Shown here one piece after another: positions 14,064 through 59,966 of a stretch of 64,000 nucleotides of DNA. How positions within the stretch are numbered: the stretch's first letter is position 1; the number at the start of each line of letters is the position of its first letter. Source of the DNA: an uncultured Gemmatimonadota bacterium (lineage in GTDB: Bacteria > JAAXHH01). The position numbers were made by a program, and so were the translations under genes. A model generated the notes under the pieces. It saw only the letters and a list, made by a program, of their open reading frames with translations, made no database searches and was not told the origin of the DNA. The stretch is taken from assembly GCA_951812955.1 (NCBI GenBank), contig OX638340.1, forward strand, positions 192,001-256,000, given 5' to 3'.

Positions 14064-15998
14064 ATGAACCTGTATCTCCGAATACTGTCCTATGTAAAGC
14101 CCTACTGGTACTTCATGGCCGGCGCCATGGTGTGCATGGCCTTCTTTGCGCTGACCAGCAGCGCAACGGTCTGGGTGGCCCTGCCCTTTCTGCAGACCCT
14201 GTTCGGCCATCAAACCGTACAGACGGACCAGTCCGGGCAGACCGGGCAAACCGTACAGACGGACCAGACCGGGCAGTCCGGGCAGACCGGGCAGTTCGAC
14301 TTGGCGCGGGATTCGGCGAACCGGTTGGAGCAACGGGCCGGGATGGCGGGCCTGCGCGAGTCGTTGAAGGATCGCACCAACGCCCTGATCACCCGGCCGA
14401 CCAGGCAGGCTACGCTGGAACGCCTCTGCCTGATCATCCTGTTCATCCTCCTGATCAAGAACATCAGCAGTTACCTGCAGGCCTACCTGATGGCCTACGC
14501 CGAGAACGGGGTCATCAAGGACCTACGGAACCATCTCTATATCCACCTTCACCGCCTTTCCCTGTCCTACTTCCACCGTGAACGCACGGGAGAGCTCATC
14601 TCCCGCGTGTCCTACGACGTCATGAAGATCAACGGGACGGTTTCCGCCGCCTTCGGGACGTTGATCAAGGAACCTATGCTGGTGGTGGTCTACCTCGCGA
14701 TCCTCTTGATCCTGAGCTGGCAATTGACGCTGGTCTCCCTGGTGCTTCTTCCCTTCAGCGTCCTCGTCATCACCACGGTGGGCAGGCGGCTGCGCCGGAG
14801 CAGCACCGCCTCACAGGAAGCCATGGCCGATCTGACCTCGACGCTCCAGGAGACCGTGGCCGGCGTACGGGTGGTCAAGGCCTTCAACATGGAATCCTTC
14901 GAGATCGGCAAGTTCAAGCGGCAGACCCAGCATTACTTCGCCACGCTGCTTCGACTGACCCACATGCACAACCTGGCCAGCCCCATCACGGAGATCCTGG
15001 GCAGCTTCGTCGGCCTGGCGATCCTCTGGTACGGCGGCCGGCAGGTCCTCGAAGGCGGCCTGCTTGCTCCGGAGGATTTCCTGACATTCTTTCTCGCCCT
15101 CTTTTCCATGATGAAACCGGTCAAGGAACTCGGACAGGTGCACAACCGAATCCAGGAGGGAATCGCGGCCGCCGACCGCGTGTTTTCGATCCTGGACACG
15201 GCGCCCGAAATCACGGACGCGCCCGAAGCGGAGCGGCTTCCCGACCTGCGGCGGGAAATCCGGTTCCACCGTGTTGCCTTCCGGTACGACAGGTCCGCCG
15301 AACCCGCCCTTGAGGATATCGATCTCGTGGTCCGATCGGGAGAGACCGTGGCCCTCGTGGGACCGAGCGGTGGTGGCAAGTCCACCCTGGTTGACCTCGT
15401 CGCACGGTTTTACGACCCGACCTGCGGGCGTATCGAGATAGATGGGAAAGACCTGCGTTCGGTCACCGTGGCGTCCCTCCGGGACAAGATGGGCATCGTG
15501 ACACAGGACGTGATCCTGTTCAACGACACGGTCCGCAACAATATCGCTTACGGCGTGCAGGACATGCCCGTGGACCGGATACAATCCGCCGCGGCTGCTG
15601 CCAACGCGGATGCCTTCATCGACCAGTTGCCCGATGGATACGAAACATATCTCGGGGAACGCGGCGTGCGTCTCTCCGGGGGCCAGCGCCAGCGTATCGC
15701 GATCGCAAGGGCCATCCTGAAGGATCCCCAGATCCTCATATTCGACGAGGCCACCTCCAGTCTGGATACCGAGTCCGAACTGCTGGTCCAGGAGGCCATC
15801 GACCGGTTGATGGCGGGGAGGACGGCCCTGGTCATCGCCCATCGCCTGTCGACCGTGCAGAAGGCGGACCGGGTGGTCGTGGTCGACCGTGGCCGTATCG
15901 TGCAGACCGGCGATCACGGATCGCTGATCCGGGAAGACGGCCTGTACCGGAAGCTCTACAATCTGCAGTTCCGGGACCAGGAACCCGTCGCGGAATAA
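14064..15998 (+). CDS. msbA: MsbA-like lipid A/glycolipid ABC exporter (fused TMD-NBD) with ~60-aa repeat-containing insertion in first extracytoplasmic loop
   Basis: Six-TM domain plus NBD with Walker A GPSGGGKST, signature LSGGQRQR, Walker B ILIFDEATS; 644 aa vs ~580 typical. Confidence 0.85.
   Translation: MNLYLRILSYVKPYWYFMAGAMVCMAFFALTSSATVWVALPFLQTLFGHQTVQTDQSGQTGQTVQTDQTGQSGQTGQFDLARDSANRLEQRAGMAGLRESLKDRTNALITRPTRQATLERLCLIILFILLIKNISSYLQAYLMAYAENGVIKDLRNHLYIHLHRLSLSYFHRERTGELISRVSYDVMKINGTVSAAFGTLIKEPMLVVVYLAILLILSWQLTLVSLVLLPFSVLVITTVGRRLRRSSTASQEAMADLTSTLQETVAGVRVVKAFNMESFEIGKFKRQTQHYFATLLRLTHMHNLASPITEILGSFVGLAILWYGGRQVLEGGLLAPEDFLTFFLALFSMMKPVKELGQVHNRIQEGIAAADRVFSILDTAPEITDAPEAERLPDLRREIRFHRVAFRYDRSAEPALEDIDLVVRSGETVALVGPSGGGKSTLVDLVARFYDPTCGRIEIDGKDLRSVTVASLRDKMGIVTQDVILFNDTVRNNIAYGVQDMPVDRIQSAAAAANADAFIDQLPDGYETYLGERGVRLSGGQRQRIAIARAILKDPQILIFDEATSSLDTESELLVQEAIDRLMAGRTALVIAHRLSTVQKADRVVVVDRGRIVQTGDHGSLIREDGLYRKLYNLQFRDQEPVAE
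14211..14294 (+). repeat. In-frame tandem repeat inside msbA encoding QTVQTDQ(S/T)GQTGQ units
   Basis: caaaccgtacagacggaccag...gggcagaccgggcag repeated twice with gggcag(a/t)ccgggcag sub-repeats. Confidence 0.85.
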
Positions 15999-19979: not shown

Positions 19980-20768
19980 ATGTCCATTTCCGTCATAGTC
20001 ATAGCCCGGGACGAAGCCCTCCGGATCGAAACCTGCCTGCAGAGCGCGCGCTTCGCCGACGAGATCGTGCTCGTGGACTCCGGGAGCACGGACGACACCG
20101 TCGCCATCGCGCGGAAGTACGCCGACCAGGTCATCGAATCGGAGTGGCGTGGCTACGGCGCGACCAAGCAACTGGCCCTGGAGCACGCCAGCGGGGACTG
20201 GGTACTCTGGCTGGACGCGGACGAACGCGTCCCGCCGGACCTGCGGGATGAGATCCTCGCCACAGTGGATGCCGGCGAGCATGCCGGATACCGCATCGCT
20301 CGGAAGACGTTTTTCCTGGGACGCTGGATTCGCCACTGCGGCTGGTATCCCGACTACGTACTCCGCCTGTTCCGGCGTGCGGCCGAACCCCGGTTTACCG
20401 ACGACGAGGTCCACGAGTCGCTGCGCATCCAGGGCACGACCGGCGATCTGAAACACCCGATGATTCACGATACCGATCCCACACTCCACCACTACCTCCG
20501 CAAGTTCAACAGTTTTACCAGTCTCGGCGCCCGCCAGCTATACCTGTCTGGCCGGCGTTTCCGTTTGACAGATCTGGTGTTCCGTCCGATTTTTACCCTG
20601 GTGAAAATGTACGTGCTGAAGCGGGGTTTCCTGGATGGCCTGCCCGGCTTCATCTTGTGCGGCCTTTCCGCCTGTTACGTTTTCGCCAAGTACGCCAAGT
20701 TATGGCACCTGCACGCCCGCGGCTCCGCCGACTTCGAATCGGGCGCGGCGGGCGGCCAGTCCTCCTGA
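19980..20768 (+). CDS. Glycosyltransferase family 2 (WaaE/KdtX-like), paralog 2
   Basis: SISVIVIARDEA...VLVDSGSTDDT...WLDADERV; same architecture as 10939-11814. Confidence 0.8.
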   Translation: MSISVIVIARDEALRIETCLQSARFADEIVLVDSGSTDDTVAIARKYADQVIESEWRGYGATKQLALEHASGDWVLWLDADERVPPDLRDEILATVDAGEHAGYRIARKTFFLGRWIRHCGWYPDYVLRLFRRAAEPRFTDDEVHESLRIQGTTGDLKHPMIHDTDPTLHHYLRKFNSFTSLGARQLYLSGRRFRLTDLVFRPIFTLVKMYVLKRGFLDGLPGFILCGLSACYVFAKYAKLWHLHARGSADFESGAAGGQSS

Positions 20769-20793
20769 AACCGCACCTTCACCGGCGACTCCC

Positions 20794-21606
20794 ATGCAAA
20801 CGCTGTCCGTCGTGGTAATCACCCGCAATGAGGAACGGAAACTCCGCTGCTGCCTGGATCCCGTCTCCTGGGCCGACGACATCGTCGTAGTAGACAGTTA
20901 CAGCACCGACGCCACGGTGGAAATCGCGGAAACCTACACCGGCCGCGTGTTTCGTCGGGCCTGGTCCGGCTTTGCCGACCAGCGGAATTTCGGCATGGAG
21001 CAGGCCCGCGGGGAATGGATACTCTTTCTCGACGCGGATGAATACGTCACCGGCGGGCTCGAGCAGCGTATTCGCGAATTGTTGCGGGACGGCGGGGACT
21101 ACGACGCCTACAAGATCCATCGCCTGGAACACTTCCTTCGGTTTCCGATCAGACACGGGACCCTCAATCCGAGTTACCAGCCCCGGCTGCTGAGAAAAGG
21201 GAAGGGGTACTGGACGGGCGGCGCGCACGCCCATATCGAGGTAGACGGCCACGGCGAACTGGGCCTGATCCACGAGGACCTCTACCATGATTCGCACAAC
21301 TCGCTCTCCGATTTCATCGAACGGATCAACCAGTACACCACGGTGGACGCGGAAGAGCGTATTCTGGCGGGGCAGCGTGTGGGACGACTGCGCCTGGTGC
21401 TTTCACCTGTCGGGATGGCCTGGAAGTGCTATATCGTTAAAAAGGGGTACCGGGACGGGTTCCCCGGCCTGCTGTTCAGCCTTTGTATGGGGATCTATTC
21501 GTTCCTGAGGCTGGTCAAGGTCTGGCAGCACGGATCCCGGGTAGAGGAGCGTACGGAAGGCCGGGCGAAGGATAACCCGGAAGGCCGGGCGCAGTCGCCG
21601 TCGTGA
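20794..21606 (+). CDS. Glycosyltransferase family 2 (WaaE/KdtX-like), paralog 3
   Basis: TLSVVVITRNEE...VVVDSYSTDAT...FLDADEYV; ATG at 20794 chosen (upstream part of ORF overlaps previous gene). Confidence 0.8.
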   Translation: MQTLSVVVITRNEERKLRCCLDPVSWADDIVVVDSYSTDATVEIAETYTGRVFRRAWSGFADQRNFGMEQARGEWILFLDADEYVTGGLEQRIRELLRDGGDYDAYKIHRLEHFLRFPIRHGTLNPSYQPRLLRKGKGYWTGGAHAHIEVDGHGELGLIHEDLYHDSHNSLSDFIERINQYTTVDAEERILAGQRVGRLRLVLSPVGMAWKCYIVKKGYRDGFPGLLFSLCMGIYSFLRLVKVWQHGSRVEERTEGRAKDNPEGRAQSPS

Positions 21607-21626: not shown

Positions 21627-22586
21627 ATGTCACAGGACGAACGATGCAGTATCGTGATACCGACGTGGAACGCGGGTTCATTGATCGAACGGTGCCTGCG
21701 CGCACTGAAGGATCACGGGGAAGCGGACCGTACGGAGATCGTAGTGGTCGACGACGGCGGCACGGACGACTCCGTCGAAAGGATAGAGGCGGCCTGTCCG
21801 GATGCGGTCCTGGCCAGGCACGGGGAGAACAGGGGTTTTGCCGCGGCGTGCAACACGGGCGTGGCCCGGGCTTCGCACGAAGTCGTGGTCCTGCTCAACA
21901 ACGACATCGTCGCCACCGGCCCGTTCCTGGATCCGCTCCTTTCCCATTTCCGGGATGACCGGGTGTTCGCTGTCAATCCCCGGGTCTACCACGCCTCGGA
22001 TCGGCGTCCCGGCGGCGGGTTGGTGCGGGGGTACATGCACTGCGGGCTGTTACGACTCAGGTGGGCCGAAAGCGAGTCCCGGCGCGAAGCCGGAGGACTC
22101 ACGCTGTACGCCAACGGGGCCGCCATGGCGGTTTCCAGGGAAAAGTACCTGTCGCTCGGTGGATTCGACACCCTGTACGCGCCCTTTTACTCGGAAGACC
22201 TGGACCTGTCCTACCGTGCGTACCAGCGGGGATGGACCGTGCAATATGAACCGGAAAGCCGGCTTGACCACGATCACGGCGCCACGATCGGCGCCCGACA
22301 TGATCAGACCCGCATCGACCGGGTCAGCATGAGAAACCGGATCCTCTTCGTGTGGCGCAACGTACGGGACGGGCGGTACCTGGCCGGTCATGTCCTTTGG
22401 ATGATCGCCCGCTCGTTCGGCGCGATGCTGAAGGGCGATCTGGCCTTTCTTGGGGCGCTTGTGGACGCGACGGCCCGGTGGGGCGCGGTGATGAAGCGGC
22501 GGCGGTCCGATCAGGAACCCGTGGTCTCCGACCGCGAGATCCTGCGATCCACATCCAGGTGGGCCGGTCGCGAACAGGCCGGATAG
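21627..22586 (+). CDS. Glycosyltransferase family 2 (larger GT-A type)
   Basis: CSIVIPTWNAG...VVVDDGGTDDS...LLNNDIV...YSEDLDLSYR (DxD and ED motifs). Confidence 0.75.
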   Translation: MSQDERCSIVIPTWNAGSLIERCLRALKDHGEADRTEIVVVDDGGTDDSVERIEAACPDAVLARHGENRGFAAACNTGVARASHEVVVLLNNDIVATGPFLDPLLSHFRDDRVFAVNPRVYHASDRRPGGGLVRGYMHCGLLRLRWAESESRREAGGLTLYANGAAMAVSREKYLSLGGFDTLYAPFYSEDLDLSYRAYQRGWTVQYEPESRLDHDHGATIGARHDQTRIDRVSMRNRILFVWRNVRDGRYLAGHVLWMIARSFGAMLKGDLAFLGALVDATARWGAVMKRRRSDQEPVVSDREILRSTSRWAGREQAG

Positions 22587-22637
22587 TCGGATTCTGCGCG
22601 CGCTCGGATTCTGCACTTGCTCGGATTCTGCACGACA
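22587..22637 (+). repeat. Three contiguous 17-bp direct repeats (TCGGATTCTGC core) in GT2/GT9 intergenic region
   Basis: tcggattctgcgcgcgc / tcggattctgcacttgc / tcggattctgcacgaca back-to-back immediately upstream of the GT9 start at 22658. Confidence 0.9.
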
Positions 22638-22657
22638 AATGGATAAGTTTGACTACC

Positions 22658-23701
22658 ATGAAAGCACCGGAACTGGATCGGATCCTCATTTCCCGTTTGC
22701 GGTTCATCGGCGATGTCGTGCTTACCACGCCGGTGATCAGGGCGCTGAAGCGTCAGTACCCGGAAGCGGGCCTCTACTTCTTGGCGGAGTCGGGACCCGC
22801 GGCGGTCCTCGCCCGGAACCCCTACCTGGAAGAAGTGATCGTGCTGCCGGATGAGCTCCTTCCAGGCCGGGCCGTCCTGACCCGGTGCGCTGCCCAGGTG
22901 CGGTTCCTTCGTTCATTGCGAAAGCGGCGGTTCGACCTGTCGATCGATCTCTTTGGCAATCCCCGAAGCGCGTTGCTGACCCTGGCCACGGGTGCGCGGT
23001 ACCGGGTCGGCTATGATGTTCGGGGAAGGGGCCGGGCGTATAATGTCAAGATCAGGCGGACCGAATCCCGCCGGGTGCTCGATGCCTACCTGGACGCCGT
23101 ACGGACGATAGGGGTTCCGGTCGAGGACGATCGCACCGAAGTGCATTTCTCCGTGGAAGACGCGAAGTGGGCGGACTCCTGGCTGAAGGCGCGGGGAATC
23201 GACGGAACCCGTCCGATTGTCGCCTTGAACCCCGGCGCCAGCTGGCCCGCCAAGACCTGGAGCGCGGGGCGGTTCGCCGAACTGGCGGCGGGGTTGACCG
23301 GAGAACTGAATGCGGCGGTCCTGCTGGTGGCGGGACCGGGTCAGCGGGATTTCATGAATGTAACAGACGCGCTGACCGCTCATGACTGTCCCGTCGTGCA
23401 TACCGATTCGCTCACCCGTCTGGCGGCGTTGATCCACCGCTGCCGCCTGTACGTTTCAAATGACTGTGGCCCGATGCATATCGCTGTCGCCGTGGGCACG
23501 CCTACGATCGGCCTCTTCGGACCGAGCCGGCCGGAGATCTGGTTTCCCTATTCGGCTGAGGAAGGGCACGTAGCACTGCAGGCCGAAACGGACAACTGCT
23601 GCGGCCGCGATTTCTGCATAAGGTCGACGCCCTGCATCGAATCGATCTCGCCGCGCAAAGTGCTCGACACCGCGGAATCTCTGCTAGGCCGGTCCGTTTA
23701 A
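22658..23701 (+). CDS. Glycosyltransferase family 9 (heptosyltransferase-like), paralog 2
   Basis: ILISRLRFIGDVVLTTPVIRAL ... VSNDCGPMHIAVAVGTPTIGLFG. Confidence 0.8.
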   Translation: MKAPELDRILISRLRFIGDVVLTTPVIRALKRQYPEAGLYFLAESGPAAVLARNPYLEEVIVLPDELLPGRAVLTRCAAQVRFLRSLRKRRFDLSIDLFGNPRSALLTLATGARYRVGYDVRGRGRAYNVKIRRTESRRVLDAYLDAVRTIGVPVEDDRTEVHFSVEDAKWADSWLKARGIDGTRPIVALNPGASWPAKTWSAGRFAELAAGLTGELNAAVLLVAGPGQRDFMNVTDALTAHDCPVVHTDSLTRLAALIHRCRLYVSNDCGPMHIAVAVGTPTIGLFGPSRPEIWFPYSAEEGHVALQAETDNCCGRDFCIRSTPCIESISPRKVLDTAESLLGRSV

Positions 23702-23721: not shown

Positions 23722-24762
23722 ATGCCCGTATCACCCGAACGAATCCTGGTCATTAAACTGCGAGCCACAGGTGACGTCGTTCTATCTACTCCCGTAATCG
23801 AAAACCTGAAGCGGCGGTTTCCCGGGGCCCGTATCACATTTCTGACGGAAGAGGCCTCCGCTGACGTATTGAGATGGAATGAATTCCTGGATGACCTCAT
23901 CGTGCTGCCGGTTCGTCGGTGGAAACGCGCCGGTTTCCGGCGGTCCTGGCGCGAGCAGGCTCGTTTCTACCGTAACCTGCGCCGCAGGCGTTTCGATCTC
24001 GCGATAGACCTCTTCGGCAACCCGCGCAGCGCCGTGCTGACCTGGCTGAGCGGGGCGGCGAACCGGGTCGGCTACGCCTTCAGGGGGCGTCGCCTCGCCT
24101 ACAACACCGTGGTTGCGCCCCCGGAACGGGCGGGGCACGAGGTCCTTTTCCACCTCGAGGCCCTCGAGGCCCTGGACATCCCGGTTGTCACCAGCCGGCC
24201 AGCCGTCACCATACCCGGGACGGCCGAAGGAAAGGCGCGCCGGTGGCTGCGTGGGCATATCCAGGAAAGCCGCGCGGTCGTTGGGCTGAATCCAGGTGGC
24301 GGATGGGCAATCAAGCGGTGGCCGCCGGACAGTTTCGGCCGCCTGGCAGACGCCCTGATCGATGAATTCGGCGTGGAAGTCCTGGTCATGTGGGGTCCGG
24401 GCGAAGAGGCGCTCGTCGAAGCGGTGGCCGGCGCCATGCGTAACCGTCCCTTCGTTATCCCCGCGGTAACGCTCGCGGAACTCGGCGCCTACCTCAAACG
24501 CTGCTGCCTGCTGGTCAGTAACGACAGCGGTCCGATGCACATGGCCGCGGCGCTGGACGTTCCGACGATCGGTATTTTCGGTCCAACCGATCCCCGGGCC
24601 CAGGGGCCATGGGGCGATGGTCACGGTGTGGTGCGGAAGGAAAGTGTCGACTGTCTCGGCTGCAACCGGGTCGAATGTCCCATCGGCAACATTTGCATGA
24701 CGACGCTGGAACCCCGAGAGGTACTCGAGAAGATACAGCCATACATTCCAGTCGAAGCTTGA
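23722..24762 (+). CDS. Glycosyltransferase family 9 (heptosyltransferase-like), paralog 3
   Basis: ILVIKLRATGDVVLSTPVIENL ... VSNDSGPMHMAAALDVPTIGIFG. Confidence 0.8.
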   Translation: MPVSPERILVIKLRATGDVVLSTPVIENLKRRFPGARITFLTEEASADVLRWNEFLDDLIVLPVRRWKRAGFRRSWREQARFYRNLRRRRFDLAIDLFGNPRSAVLTWLSGAANRVGYAFRGRRLAYNTVVAPPERAGHEVLFHLEALEALDIPVVTSRPAVTIPGTAEGKARRWLRGHIQESRAVVGLNPGGGWAIKRWPPDSFGRLADALIDEFGVEVLVMWGPGEEALVEAVAGAMRNRPFVIPAVTLAELGAYLKRCCLLVSNDSGPMHMAAALDVPTIGIFGPTDPRAQGPWGDGHGVVRKESVDCLGCNRVECPIGNICMTTLEPREVLEKIQPYIPVEA

Positions 24763-24787
24763 CATTAACCGGTCCACATGTTATATT
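24759..24787 (+). promoter_or_regulatory. Candidate promoter TTGACA-N17-TATATT for rng
   Basis: TTGACA 24759-24764 (overlapping the stop of the preceding gene), 17-nt spacer, TATATT 24782-24787. Confidence 0.5.
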
Positions 24788-24847: not shown

Positions 24848-26380
24848 TTGCGGAAAGATATCATAGTTGAGACGGCCACGCACGAAACGCGCATTGCCAT
24901 GCTCGAGGACAACCATCTCGTTGAGCTTCTGGTCGAACGCCCGGAACACGAACGCGTGGTCGGGAATATCTGCAAGGGCGTTGTAACGGCGGTCATACCG
25001 AGTATTCAGGCAGCCTTCGTCGATATCGGCATGGACAAGGCGGCCTTCCTGCAGGCGTCGGATGTCACCGGAGGGGCCGACTGGATCGATTTCGATGACG
25101 ACGAAAACCAGGATTCCGGATCCGGCAGGAGCAGAGACCGGGAATACCGGATACAGGAGATGGTCAAAGAAGGCCAGGAAATCGTAGTCCAGATTACGAA
25201 GGAGTCGATCGGCACCAAGGGACCTCGGGTCACCTCCCAGATATCTCTGCCGGGCAGGTTTCTCGTGCTGGTTCCCCATGCCAATTACGTCGGCGTGTCG
25301 CGACGGATCGACGACTGGAGCGAAAAGCGCAGGCTCAGGGACCTGGCCCGAAGCCTCAAGTCCGACGACTTCGGGGTCATCGTGCGGACGGCCGCACTGG
25401 GCAAATCGGATTCCGAGTTGAAGAACGATCTCAAGCAGTTGACCAAGATCTCGAAGAATATCGAGAAACAGGTCGGGAATACATCGGCCCCCGCCATGAT
25501 CCACAAGGACGTCGAAATGACGTCGGGGATGATACGCGATCTGTTCACGCCCGATATCGACAGTGTAATCATCGATTCGAAGGCGGTATACAAGGAGATC
25601 CTCGCATACCTCAAGGGGGTGGCCCCCCAGCTCCGCTCGCGCGTTCACATGTACGATGGGACGGCGCCGGTGTTCGACGCCTACGGGATCGAAAACGAGA
25701 TCGGCAAGGCGCTGCACCGGAAAGTATGGCTGAAGAATGGCGGATACATACTCATCGAGCCCACAGAAGCGCTGGTGACGATAGACGTGAATTCGGGGCG
25801 GTACGCGGGCTCCAAGGGGCACGAGGAAACGGTGTACCAGACCAACCTGGAAGCCTGCGCGGAGGTCGCCCGGCAGCTTCGGCTCAGGGACATCGGGGGC
25901 ATCATCGTTATAGATTTCATTGACATGGAAGACCGTGGAAACCGCCGCCAGGTGCACCAGGAGATGGAAAAGGTCATGGCGCACGACCGCGCGCGGACAC
26001 GCATGTCCAAGGAGATCAGCGAATTCGGACTGATAGAGATGACCCGCCAGCGGATCCGTCCCAGCCTGCTCTTCACCTTCAGCGAAGCGTGCCCGGTGTG
26101 CGACGGAACCGGACGAATCATGTCGCGCCTTACCATGGTAACCCAGATCGGCCGGTGGCTGAAGCGGGCGAAGCCGGGCTTGAGAGAACGAAGGCTCAAG
26201 CTCAAAGTCCATCCCACCGTGGCGTTGAGTCTGAACGAAAACGGCCGGGAGAAACTGGTGAACCTGCAAGACGAATACAAGATGCAACTTCAGATCGAGG
26301 AAGATCCGTTTCTTCACGTGGAGGAGTTCCGCGTGTTTTCGGGCAAACGGGACCTGGACGTGACCGACGAGTTTAAGTGA
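24848..26380 (+). CDS. rng: Ribonuclease G (RNase E/G family, short form)
   Basis: N-terminal S1 domain VGNICKGVVTAVIPSIQAAFVDIG, catalytic region VTIDVNSG, Zn-link CPVCDGTG; 510 aa; TTG start. Confidence 0.8.
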   Translation: MRKDIIVETATHETRIAMLEDNHLVELLVERPEHERVVGNICKGVVTAVIPSIQAAFVDIGMDKAAFLQASDVTGGADWIDFDDDENQDSGSGRSRDREYRIQEMVKEGQEIVVQITKESIGTKGPRVTSQISLPGRFLVLVPHANYVGVSRRIDDWSEKRRLRDLARSLKSDDFGVIVRTAALGKSDSELKNDLKQLTKISKNIEKQVGNTSAPAMIHKDVEMTSGMIRDLFTPDIDSVIIDSKAVYKEILAYLKGVAPQLRSRVHMYDGTAPVFDAYGIENEIGKALHRKVWLKNGGYILIEPTEALVTIDVNSGRYAGSKGHEETVYQTNLEACAEVARQLRLRDIGGIIVIDFIDMEDRGNRRQVHQEMEKVMAHDRARTRMSKEISEFGLIEMTRQRIRPSLLFTFSEACPVCDGTGRIMSRLTMVTQIGRWLKRAKPGLRERRLKLKVHPTVALSLNENGREKLVNLQDEYKMQLQIEEDPFLHVEEFRVFSGKRDLDVTDEFK

Positions 26381-39090: not shown

Positions 39091-40635
39091 TTGAAACAGC
39101 TTTCGAAATTGCTGGCCGCGTTACCTCAAAAAAAAGTCATCAGCCGGCTGAATGCCTCGAACCGGGCGGACCGGGCGGACCGGGCAGTCCAGGCGGACTA
39201 TGCGGACCATGCGGACCATGCGGACCAGGAGATTGGAACCATAGTCCATGACTCGAGGTCCGTAGAGCCAGGCGATGTTTTTGTCGCGCTCCGCGAGCCT
39301 TCGGGCCGCGACGGCCGCAGGTACGCCCGCGACGCGGTTGCACGGGGCGCTTCGGTAGTGGTACAGGAAAGCGAGGAGGGCCTGGATGACGCGATCGTGA
39401 TAAGCGTTCCGGACACTTCCAGGGCTCTGGGCTTGATGGCCGCGGCGTACTACGGTCAGCCGGCGACCGACCTTTGTCTGATCGGTATTACGGGGACCAA
39501 CGGAAAGACGACCGTGTCATTGCTGGTCGAGGCTATCCTTCGGGAATGTGGCTGGGCCGTGGGCGGGATCGGCACGCTGGGCAGCCGGTTCATGGGCAAT
39601 GTGCTCGACTGGAAACTGGGCCACACCACGCCCTATCCGATGGAGCTGCACGGCACCCTGAGGAAGATCCGGGACCGGGGAGGCGAATGCGTCGTCATGG
39701 AAGTATCCTCTCACAGCCTGGTCTGGCAACGCCTGTCCGGCCTGCGATTCACCACGGGCGTCTTTACGAATCTCTCCAGGGAACACCTGGACGACCACAA
39801 GACCTTCGACGCTTACAAGGAAGCGAAGATGGTGCTTTTCTCGAAATACCTCGAGGAGAAAGGCAACGCCGTCCTGAACATGGACGATCCGGCCTATGTC
39901 CATTTCAAGGACGCATCGCGCGCACAGGTGCGATCATACGGACTGGACAAGAAGGCTGACGTCCGCAGGGCGGGTCCAATAGGATACTATGCTGACCGGA
40001 CCGTCATGAAAGTGCAGATTCAATCCGGTCCCCCTTTCAACGTGACCTTGCCTCTCCTGGGTCGTTTCAACGCGTACAACGCCCTGGCAGCCATATCCGT
40101 GGGGCTGGGATTCGGCATCGACTGTGAACTGATGAGCCGGGCCATGTCACGAGTCAGGGTACCCGGCCGGCTTGAGCGCGTCGAGGCTGGACAGCCTTTC
40201 AACGTGCTCGTGGATTTCGCCCATACGCCCGACGCACTCGGCGCCGTACTGTCCGCCTGCCGGGAATGGACCCGTGGAAGCCTGACCGTCGTATTCGGTT
40301 GCGGCGGGGACCGTGATCCCGGCAAGCGGCCGCTGATGGCCCGTGCGGCGTCCACCCACGCCGACGTAGTCATCGTGACGACCGACAACCCGAGAACGGA
40401 ACCGCCCGACCGGATCATAAGAGATATCGAGCCGGGTCTCCTGCCCCACGTCCGGTCCCATATAGTCCAGGACCGCGGCGAAGCGATCCATAAGGCCCTC
40501 AGCGATGCCGGCGAAGGAGACACCGTGCTGATCGCCGGAAGAGGAGACACGGCCTACCAGATCGTTGGCGAATCGCAAATCGAGTTCGACGACCGGTTCA
40601 AGGCCAGGGAATGTCTCGAGGCGCACTATGGATAA
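39091..40635 (+). CDS. murE: UDP-MurNAc-L-Ala-D-Glu:meso-DAP ligase MurE (with ~25-aa repeat-rich N-terminal extension)
   Basis: GITGTNGKTT P-loop, DNPR and meso-DAP-type C-terminal motifs. Confidence 0.9.
   Translation: MKQLSKLLAALPQKKVISRLNASNRADRADRAVQADYADHADHADQEIGTIVHDSRSVEPGDVFVALREPSGRDGRRYARDAVARGASVVVQESEEGLDDAIVISVPDTSRALGLMAAAYYGQPATDLCLIGITGTNGKTTVSLLVEAILRECGWAVGGIGTLGSRFMGNVLDWKLGHTTPYPMELHGTLRKIRDRGGECVVMEVSSHSLVWQRLSGLRFTTGVFTNLSREHLDDHKTFDAYKEAKMVLFSKYLEEKGNAVLNMDDPAYVHFKDASRAQVRSYGLDKKADVRRAGPIGYYADRTVMKVQIQSGPPFNVTLPLLGRFNAYNALAAISVGLGFGIDCELMSRAMSRVRVPGRLERVEAGQPFNVLVDFAHTPDALGAVLSACREWTRGSLTVVFGCGGDRDPGKRPLMARAASTHADVVIVTTDNPRTEPPDRIIRDIEPGLLPHVRSHIVQDRGEAIHKALSDAGEGDTVLIAGRGDTAYQIVGESQIEFDDRFKARECLEAHYG
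39160..39227 (+). repeat. In-frame 9-nt tandem repeats in murE 5' region (ccgggcgga x3-like then gcggac(c/t)at x4) encoding RADRADRAVQADYADHADHAD
   Basis: aaccgggcggaccgggcggaccgggcag...gcggactatgcggaccatgcggaccatgcggaccag; preceded by an A8 homopolymer at 39129-39136. Confidence 0.85.
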
Positions 40636-58091: not shown

Positions 58092-58925
58092 ATGCATCCC
58101 ATACTTTTTGAGATCGGCCCACTGACTGTACGAACCTACGGCCTTTTGCTTGCCGTATCCTTCATGGTTGGGATTCTCCTGGCGCTTAGACGATCCAGGG
58201 CCCGTGGCTTGAACCAGAACAAGATGGTCAACATGAGCCTGCTCATCATGCTCACGGGCATCGTCGGCGCCAGGATCATGTATGTCATACCCCACTGGAA
58301 CGAGTTCAGTGCGAACCCCCTCGATATCATCAGTCCCTTTCAAAGCTCCGGTTCGATCGGTCTGACCGGATTGACCCTGTACGGCGGATTCATCGCGGCG
58401 GTCCTGGCATCCATACTGTACCTTCGCATGAACAGGCTGTCGGTATGGAAGGCCTGCGACGCCTTTGCACCGAGTATCGCCCTCGGTATCGGGATCAGCC
58501 GCGTCGGTTGCTTTATGAACGGCTGCTGTTTCGGACTTCCCACCGAGTCGGCCCTGGGTGTAGTCTTCCCGGCGTTCAGCGCGGCGGGCTCTTTCTATCC
58601 GGACGTCTCGCTTCATCCCGCCCAGCTGTACAACGCCGTACTGGGCTTCAGCCTCTTCGGCCTGTTGATGTGGCTGGACCGTAAGCCTCGATTCGACGGA
58701 TTCCTCTTTGCCATGCTGCTGATTACAGAACCCATCACTCGGTTTTTCGTCGATCTGTTCAGGTACTATGAATCCAGCATGACGCTGGGCAACCTGGGCG
58801 GCGCGGTCCTTTCGGTAAACCAGGGGATCAGTATCGTTTTGTGCGGCGTTGGGTTCCTCCTCCTGGGGTGGCTCAGAAACCGCGCCCGGCGACGTTCGGA
58901 TCGGAGTCGGCCCCGTCGTGCGTGA
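58092..58925 (+). CDS. lgt: Phosphatidylglycerol:prolipoprotein diacylglyceryl transferase
   Basis: Lgt signature region FPDVSLHPAQLYNAVLGFSLFGLLMWL and G-rich TM helices. Confidence 0.88.
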   Translation: MHPILFEIGPLTVRTYGLLLAVSFMVGILLALRRSRARGLNQNKMVNMSLLIMLTGIVGARIMYVIPHWNEFSANPLDIISPFQSSGSIGLTGLTLYGGFIAAVLASILYLRMNRLSVWKACDAFAPSIALGIGISRVGCFMNGCCFGLPTESALGVVFPAFSAAGSFYPDVSLHPAQLYNAVLGFSLFGLLMWLDRKPRFDGFLFAMLLITEPITRFFVDLFRYYESSMTLGNLGGAVLSVNQGISIVLCGVGFLLLGWLRNRARRRSDRSRPRRA

Positions 58926-58958
58926 CGTAATCCGGTACGGCGGTCCATTTTCTTTCGC

Positions 58959-59062
58959 GCTTCAGTCCAGCCATCATCCGTGCTGACGCGGGCCGATGAT
59001 CCGCCGGAACGCTTCAGTCCAGCCATCATCCTTGCTGACGCGGGCCGTTGATCCGCCGGAAC
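58959..59062 (+). repeat. 52-bp direct tandem repeat, 2 copies (2 mismatches) in lgt/comF intergenic region
   Basis: gcttcagtccagccatcatcc(g/t)tgctgacgcgggccg(a/t)tgatccgccggaac at 58959-59010 and 59011-59062. Confidence 0.9.
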
Positions 59063-59204
59063 GATTACGCCGGTATCTCGCACAATATGCGAGAAACGGG
59101 CTGCGGTTATAGACTGATATAAGAAAGGAACCGCTGGAAACAGGTTTCGCTTCGACGGACGCGCCGGTCTTCGGTGATCCCCTTCCTATACGAATCGATC
59201 GTGC

Positions 59205-59966
59205 ATGCTTCGTTCAGCATCGATCGGACAGAGTCCCAAAGCCCAATTAACCAACATGTTACGTACGGTAGGCAGCGCGGTAATGGACCTGGTCTATCCC
59301 CCATGCTGCGTGTCCTGCCGGGTCCGGGTTTTCGATGGCTGCCGCGTAATCTGCAGGGTCTGCGAATCGGGACTGCTGCCGATTGATGCGCCATTCTGCG
59401 AACGATGCGGCAATCCGCTGGACACACCGGTAGTCCCCTGTCCGGCCTGCCCGGGCCGTACGTTCTATTTCGACGGCGCAATTTCCGGGTTCGAGTTCAA
59501 CCGGCCGCTACAGGATCTAATCCATCAGCTCAAGTACCGGAACCGGCCCGGCATCGGGTTGTTCCTGGGATCCTTACTGGCAAAAAGGGTTGAACAGGAA
59601 CCGGGGATGCCGCATATTACGGGCGTTATGCCCGTGCCCCTGCATCCCTTGAGAAACCGGGAAAGGGGGTATAACCAGAGCGCGTACATCGCGCGGGGTA
59701 TATCGGATGTAATGGGGATTCCGGTATTGGAAAACGTGCTTGCCCGGACCCGTAACACCCCGACGCAGACCTCGTTGAGTCCCGAAGAACGAATGGCCAA
59801 TGTCGAGGGCGTATTCGAAATCTGCGATGTCGAGGCCGTGCGTGACGCCACGATATCGCTTGTAGACGATATATTCACGACTGGGGCAACGATTAACAGT
59901 TGCGCCCGAGCTTTGCTTCAGGCCGGCGCCGAAAGGGTATTCGCCCTGACCGTTGCGCGCGCCTGA
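59205..59966 (+). CDS. comF: ComF-family protein (phosphoribosyltransferase domain, ComFC-like)
   Basis: N-terminal Zn-finger cysteines (PPCCVSC...CRVC...CERCG...CPAC), C-terminal PRTase loop LVDDIFTTGAT; alternative ATG at 59256. Confidence 0.75.
   Translation: MLRSASIGQSPKAQLTNMLRTVGSAVMDLVYPPCCVSCRVRVFDGCRVICRVCESGLLPIDAPFCERCGNPLDTPVVPCPACPGRTFYFDGAISGFEFNRPLQDLIHQLKYRNRPGIGLFLGSLLAKRVEQEPGMPHITGVMPVPLHPLRNRERGYNQSAYIARGISDVMGIPVLENVLARTRNTPTQTSLSPEERMANVEGVFEICDVEAVRDATISLVDDIFTTGATINSCARALLQAGAERVFALTVARA

Follow-up and report, generated by a model that had tools for sequence, protein, structure and literature searches.

In the window, by which we mean the whole 64-kb stretch of DNA analyzed here, a short tandem repeat array lies between two glycosyltransferase genes (Table 1). 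The window has a G+C content of 60% and its + strand holds nearly all of the genes. The gene order upstream is nuo genes, polyprenyl synthase, GT2, radical-SAM/SPASM, GT4, an MsbA-like ABC exporter, GT9, methyltransferase, DUF4212 and a Na/solute symporter. At the locus itself, three family-2 glycosyltransferase genes (GT2) are followed by the array and by two family-9 genes (GT9, the first being GT9a), after which come the genes for RNase G, L21, L27 and phosphoglucomutase. The other gaps among the glycosyltransferase genes are only about 18–26 nt long. The array sits inside a co-directional, tightly packed string of genes of the LPS-core type, which most likely forms a polycistronic unit. 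Look-ups by exact protein sequence gave no record for either GT9 protein of the window. The closest GT9 homologues belong to Gemmatimonadota MAGs, and the N-terminal of GT9a (M-K-A-P-E-L-D) is kept among the homologues; in some strains the gene callers picked an in-frame TTG (position 22649 in the window) as the GT9 start, giving 350-aa products. For the middle GT2 gene, gene calls in relatives (256–286 aa) imply a start near 20790 and a real gap of about 25 nt in place of the overlap given by its longest ORF.

About 2 kb downstream of the array, after the second GT9 gene, there is an 85-bp gap in front of the RNase G gene (TTG start at 24848). This gap is the most conserved intergenic gap among the strains and contains a near-consensus sigma-70 promoter-like site, which suggests that the string of glycosyltransferase genes ends at 24762 and that the organism uses canonical -35/-10 promoters.

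Table 1. Positions of the features at the GT2-GT9 junction and of the other window features mentioned in the text.
Feature	Coordinates	Strand	Remarks
In-frame 9-bp tandem repeat	14211..14294		CAGACCGGG x7, near the 5' end of the MsbA-like ABC exporter gene
Middle GT2 gene	20635..21606		longest ORF; overlaps the preceding gene by 134 nt
Family-2 glycosyltransferase, third of three GT2 (upstream gene)	21627..22586	+	Glycos_transf_2, E=6e-25
Repeat unit 1	22587..22603	+	TCGGATTCTGCGCGCGC; begins immediately after the GT2 TAG stop
Repeat unit 2	22604..22620	+	TCGGATTCTGCACTTGC; unit type present three times in the four-copy haplotype L020
Repeat unit 3	22621..22637	+	TCGGATTCTGCACGACA
Non-repeated rest of the gap	22638..22657	+	AATGGATAAGTTTGACTACC
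Out-of-frame 71-codon ORF	22639..22854		ATG 19 nt before the GT9a start, within AATGGA; overlaps the 5' end of GT9a
Match to TAnnTTTG	22644..22651		TAAGTTTG
Family-9 glycosyltransferase, heptosyltransferase-like (GT9a, downstream gene)	22658..23701	+	Glyco_transf_9, E about 1e-38
Second GT9 gene	23722..24762	+	20 nt after GT9a; Glyco_transf_9, E about 1e-38
Sigma-70 promoter-like site	24759..24787		TTGACA-17-TATATT, extended TG, 11/12
In-frame 9-bp tandem repeat	39161..39229		ACCAGGCGG x7.7, near the 5' end of a Mur ligase gene
lgt	58092..58925
Second intergenic tandem duplication	58958..59063		52-bp unit x 2, 96% identical, TRF score 198
ComF-like double-zinc-ribbon/phosphoribosyltransferase gene	59205..59966

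The tandem array

The original prediction described three contiguous 17-bp direct repeats in a 71-bp spacer between the GT2 end and the GT9 start, and both the sequence and Tandem Repeats Finder (TRF) bear this out, with the repeats filling most of the gap. Read along the + strand, the junction consists of GCC GGA TAG, the three units head-to-tail, the non-repeated rest and ATG AAA GCA (ATG at 22658). In the window strain each unit has the exact 11-nt core TCGGATTCTGC followed by a variable 6-nt tail. TRF reports positions 22587–22634 with a period of 17, 2.8 copies, 87% matches and a score of 75. The core occurs three times exactly in the window, always in the array, and allowing one mismatch adds no further site; we calculate that chance would place three exact 11-mers at this fixed 17-bp period about 4e-9 times in 64 kb. 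The tandem array is thus real and far above chance.

It was also claimed that nothing comparable is found elsewhere in the window. This holds for the motif and fails for tandem duplication as such, as a second one is located in the 279-bp gap between lgt and the ComF-like gene. That duplication has no Rfam match and its folding equals that of shuffled sequences. Its presence means that such events occur in this genome. Two further tandem repeats, both in-frame with 9-bp units, are found in coding regions and would give low-complexity N-terminal extensions (Table 1).

By fetching contigs for the GT9 homologues and for the members of the 90% cluster we obtained seven distinct haplotypes with conserved flanks (Table 2). 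The junction carries 1, 3, 3, 3, 3, 4 or 6 units in these seven related haplotypes, and the suggestion that the repeat number is variable is therefore confirmed by comparing one and the same junction. The six haplotypes with three to six units are 93–98% identical over 7 kb (2–7% nucleotide divergence; 2–14% at 4-fold sites) and make up one species-level population. The single-unit haplotype (L016) belongs to a sister lineage, about 10% diverged overall and 19–26% at 4-fold sites. In relatives with a GT9 protein that is 82–84% identical (L003–L006, L017) the array is absent although the whole gene order is kept; at the junction of L003 and L004 there is a 111-bp spacer of unrelated sequence, and GT2 overlaps GT9 in L005, L006 and L017. 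The array is thus a true variable-number tandem repeat (VNTR), restricted to one shallow lineage. In the six-unit haplotype, GT9a (L021 3001–4045) was called as two pieces (268 + 75 aa), which may be either a frameshift or pseudogene, or else a long-read assembly error.

Table 2. Repeat units at the GT2-GT9 junction of the seven haplotypes.
Haplotype	Units	Composition and remarks
Window	3	GT2 stop to GT9 start gap of 71 nt
L002	3	one core is TCGGATTTTGC
L008-L011	3	...ACGCGT / TCGGATTCCGCACGCGC / ...ACGCTC
L012-L015, L018, L019	3	cores TCGGATTCCAC, TCGGATTCCGC, TCGGATACCGC
L020	4	three identical TCGGATTCTGCACTTGC and ...ACGCTA; TRF period 17, 100% matches
L021	6	units 2=3 and 4=5 identical; TRF period 17, score 137; 122-bp spacer
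L016	1	37-bp spacer; TRF reports no array

By analyzing the composition of the arrays, their dynamics can be followed. Five of the six non-window haplotypes end their array in a unit with an ...ACGCT[A/C] tail, the exception being the single-unit L016. This common tail points to a shared ancestral array, and the three-unit array would therefore be older than the divergence of the haplotypes. Neighboring units are identical in L020 (three units) and in L021 (two adjacent pairs), which points to recent duplication. At unit position 9, every unit of the window has T and every unit of L012 has C, and L021 reads CCC-TTT. Taken with the identical neighbors, this pattern shows continuing duplication and homogenization (concerted evolution), as slipped-strand mispairing or unequal exchange predicts. 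Between the window and L020, its closest relative, about 6% of 4-fold sites differ, and yet their arrays are unlike in both number and composition, therefore the array evolves faster than its flanks. Pairwise divergence is roughly even along the 7 kb, which rules out that the array marks the boundary of a recombination mosaic.

Origin of the repeat unit

One of the questions raised by the array is where its unit comes from. The 37-bp spacer of the single-unit haplotype can be aligned, with hardly a gap, to the 3' coding end of the L005 and L017 GT2 genes. In this alignment the TAG stop corresponds to CCG, the TCGGAT of the unit to GCGGAC, and AATGGAC to the AAGGAG Shine-Dalgarno sequence, which L005 has within its GT2 tail, before the overlapping TGATG. 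The GT2 C-terminal tail is shorter in the window than in the relatives in which the two genes overlap. Because this spacer and the GT2 coding tail are colinear, the repeat unit is probably former coding sequence; it also follows from the colinearity that nothing was inserted. The AATGGA of the gap remainder is present in all seven haplotypes. It also contains the ATG of the out-of-frame 71-codon ORF, and this ORF is probably without meaning, because AATGGA aligns with the former Shine-Dalgarno sequence.

A mechanism that fits these alignments can be suggested. Read in one direction, as the comparison is unrooted, the ancestral state would be a GT2 gene that overlaps the GT9 start, as is still seen in some relatives. 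A premature stop would then have cut GT2 short, leaving a spacer of about 37 nt whose first 17 nt may have been tandemly duplicated by replication slippage or unequal exchange. Since then the array, at one to six units, would still be growing, shrinking and partly homogenizing. The sole likely consequence would be a change in the distance from the GT2 stop to the GT9 start, which is 37, 71, 88 or 122 nt across the haplotypes. Coupling of translation works most efficiently where genes lie very close together and declines with intergenic distance (PMC12548453). A longer gap could weaken the coupling of both GT9 genes to the upstream genes. As coupling works best at very short distance and GT9a lacks a canonical Shine-Dalgarno sequence at normal spacing (the L21 and L27 genes have one), expansion of the array might make GT9 translation fall behind that of the upstream genes; alternatively, it may be selectively neutral.

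That the array is a VNTR we regard as close to certain. That it is without a dedicated regulatory role is a less firm conclusion, which we hold to be probable. Our preferred reading as a whole, which we judge likely at about the same level, is a lineage-specific minisatellite generated by slippage in an untranslated gap of the glycosyltransferase operon and not a demonstrable regulatory device. Two points can be counted against the minisatellite reading: exactly three units are kept in four diverged haplotypes, and the change within the unit is non-uniform, which could reflect constraint on the octamer TCGGATTC.

Evidence for and against a regulatory role

The original prediction took the 11-nt core to be invariant. 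In the window strain it is, and in related strains it is not, as the cores TCGGATTCCGC, TCGGATTTTGC, TCGGATTCCAC and TCGGATACCGC are also found. What is better kept is the 5' part of the unit: TCGGAT is identical in 23/23 units from the seven haplotypes, and the octamer shows only two singleton changes. Joining the 15 unit types in a minimum-spanning network gave 23 inferred changes, with none in positions 1–6, two in positions 1–8 and 21 in positions 9–17 (P about 1e-4 against uniformity). In order to see what this means, the segregating sites of the four three-unit haplotypes were compared. In the octamer (positions 1–8) 2/24 sites segregate, against 57/315 at 4-fold sites of the flanking genes (indistinguishable, p=0.28) and 7–30% in other intergenic gaps. 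Unit positions 9–17, with 13/27 sites segregating, change significantly faster (p=0.0007), and within the array the octamer does differ from the remainder of the unit (p=0.002). Constraint on the 5' core is therefore not demonstrable, the octamer being no slower than 4-fold or other intergenic sites. The changes are uneven along the unit because its 3' part is hypervariable; a CpG-rich 3' tail and/or unit turnover can drive this unevenness, although they do not explain it fully.

Several searches were made for signals in the gap. The promoter scan found no sigma-70-like promoter in 22587–22657, and the same scan detects the site in front of the RNase G gene. No intrinsic terminator was found by a terminator scan, and Rfam gave no match for the gap at gathering or E<=1 thresholds. 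By eye, candidates for sigma-54 (-24/-12), ECF-type (GGAAC/GGAAT...CGT/GTT) and AraC/XylS-type (TGCA-N6-GGNTA) sites are unfit in spacing or sequence, the near match of the ECF type also not being conserved in L008. The Bacteroidetes-type -7 element TAnnTTTG does match the window (Table 1), but the match is not kept elsewhere among the haplotypes. Single-sequence folding of the gap is no better than that of shuffled controls (z=+0.81), with no hairpin. The modelled accessibility of the GT9 start is flat over natural and synthetic variants with 0–8 copies, the unpaired probability of the initiation region being 0.40–0.43 for 1–8 units.

The strongest alternative, which we nevertheless consider unlikely, is that the array tunes expression in a contingency-like manner: gain or loss of units would change how far apart the two genes lie, or how many SD-like CGGA motifs there are, and through it the output of GT9 and the heterogeneity of the LPS core. 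It draws on the variation of copy number among near-identical strains and its rapid change relative to the flanks, and on the setting, as an LPS-type gene cluster is the classic place for phase variation. With no canonical Shine-Dalgarno sequence at normal spacing, translation of GT9a may also depend on the upstream context, and the copy number of tandem repeats modulates expression in other bacteria (PMC12817950). Yet the gap has no promoter, and the start site is predicted to be equally accessible whatever the copy number. The number of units is equal in 4/6 conspecific haplotypes, and imperfect units lower slippage rates. There is also no on/off logic, since the array is non-coding and 17 bp are not tied to the reading frame.

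Another hypothesis, raised in the original prediction, is an array of binding sites through which a DNA- or RNA-binding factor controls the GT9 pair, such as a response-regulator-type protein on the direct repeats or a CsrA-like protein on GGA motifs of the mRNA. We find this improbable. The unchanged TCGGAT and the difference between the octamer and the rest of the unit agree with it, as does the GGA motif found in every unit (five across the gap); however, that difference comes from the hypervariable tail and not from a slow octamer, and no hairpins present the GGA motifs, so that a CsrA-type array finds no support in structure. Elsewhere in the window the motif is absent at one mismatch or fewer, and at two mismatches there is a marginal excess (75 found, including the three array copies, vs. 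58.8 +/- 7.3 expected). No regulator gene is present among the neighboring genes scanned. A period of 17 bp is out of helical phase and would place successive sites on different faces of the helix. Moreover, relatives run the same operon without the array, some of them without any spacer, and the unit is homologous to coding sequence elsewhere. No positive evidence for regulator binding was obtained. A related version, to which we give an equally low chance, is that the octamer TCGGATTC is a putative cis-acting protein or RNA site whose dosage (1–6 copies) is varied by slippage and tunes two heptosyltransferase-like genes.

That the gap holds a copy of a dispersed short element (REP- or MITE-like), also proposed originally, is highly improbable: it is favored only by the sequence being repeated and intergenic, and it is opposed by the lack of further copies in the 64 kb and in about 130 kb of related loci outside the GT2-GT9 junction, by the absence of an inverted repeat or hairpin (the fold score given above), and by the colinearity of the spacer with the coding tail of relatives, where nothing was inserted. 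A tandem-pair scan (TCGGATTCTGC-N6-TCGGATTCTGC) of 185,579 species-representative genomes and a metagenome collection gave only two matches, both unrelated AT-rich 17-bp arrays (L001, a Prevotella MAG, 274–301; L007, a metagenome contig, 2790–2880), although this exact-core pattern misses relatives with C at position 9 and so says little about the genome-wide distribution. We take the shared TCGGATTCTGC of these two arrays as a coincidence, because the search pattern itself fixes the 17-bp period.

Comparison with known repeats and significance

The minisatellite reading can be compared with repeat systems that are already described. Bacterial VNTRs or minisatellites, as used in MLVA typing, have head-to-tail units of 10–100 bp in a non-coding gap, with a copy number that differs between close strains, and show adjacent identical units and concerted changes, a sign of slippage or unequal exchange. 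The array resembles them in all of this, and differs in being a single known locus with few (1–6) units of 17 bp, the 3' part of which has already diverged. It has the defining features of the class, as it is tandem, variable in copy number and marked by recent duplication and homogenization.

Simple-sequence contingency loci such as lic/lgt of Haemophilus and Neisseria have units of 1–7 nt in long perfect tracts, in coding sequence or between promoter hexamers, and give on/off switching. The array shares with them the location at LPS glycosyltransferase genes and the slippage mechanism. However, its units are few, imperfect and 17 bp long and they lie in an intercistronic gap; it is not a simple-sequence tract of this kind. 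The copy-number variation seen is that between strains. MIRU elements are 40–100 bp long and occur at many loci, and a small ORF that overlaps the downstream start keeps translation coupled. They are similar to the array in that tandem units of variable copy number lie between the genes of an operon (PMC12548453). The unit here is only 17 bp, which is not a multiple of 3, and within the 64 kb and the related loci a single locus is known; at the junction the GT2 stop is not overlapped by any start codon, nor is the gap to the GT9 start bridged by an ORF. With a unit that is too short, no coupling ORF and one known locus, the array is not a MIRU. In promoter tandem repeats of M. tuberculosis, for example those of lpdA and dop, the units hold a promoter and expression rises with copy number (PMC12817950). 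They are likewise intergenic tandem duplications upstream of a gene, polymorphic between strains and with a possible effect on expression, but 17 bp are too short for a sigma-70 promoter, and this identity was also rejected, as no promoter-like site was found in the gap.

The junction offers a tidy example of how a spacer may be born and grow: a stop codon would cut the tail of a gene and the sequence that is freed would become a minisatellite. In practical terms, the array can be used to tell strains apart in this population of uncultured Gemmatimonadota. If the dosage of the octamer did matter, this would be an LPS locus of the contingency type, made from recycled coding sequence, in a Gemmatimonadota that lives free in the environment. 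If it is true that the number of units alters the output of the heptosyltransferases, repeat-driven variation of LPS would be extended from host-adapted pathogens to an environmental phylum.
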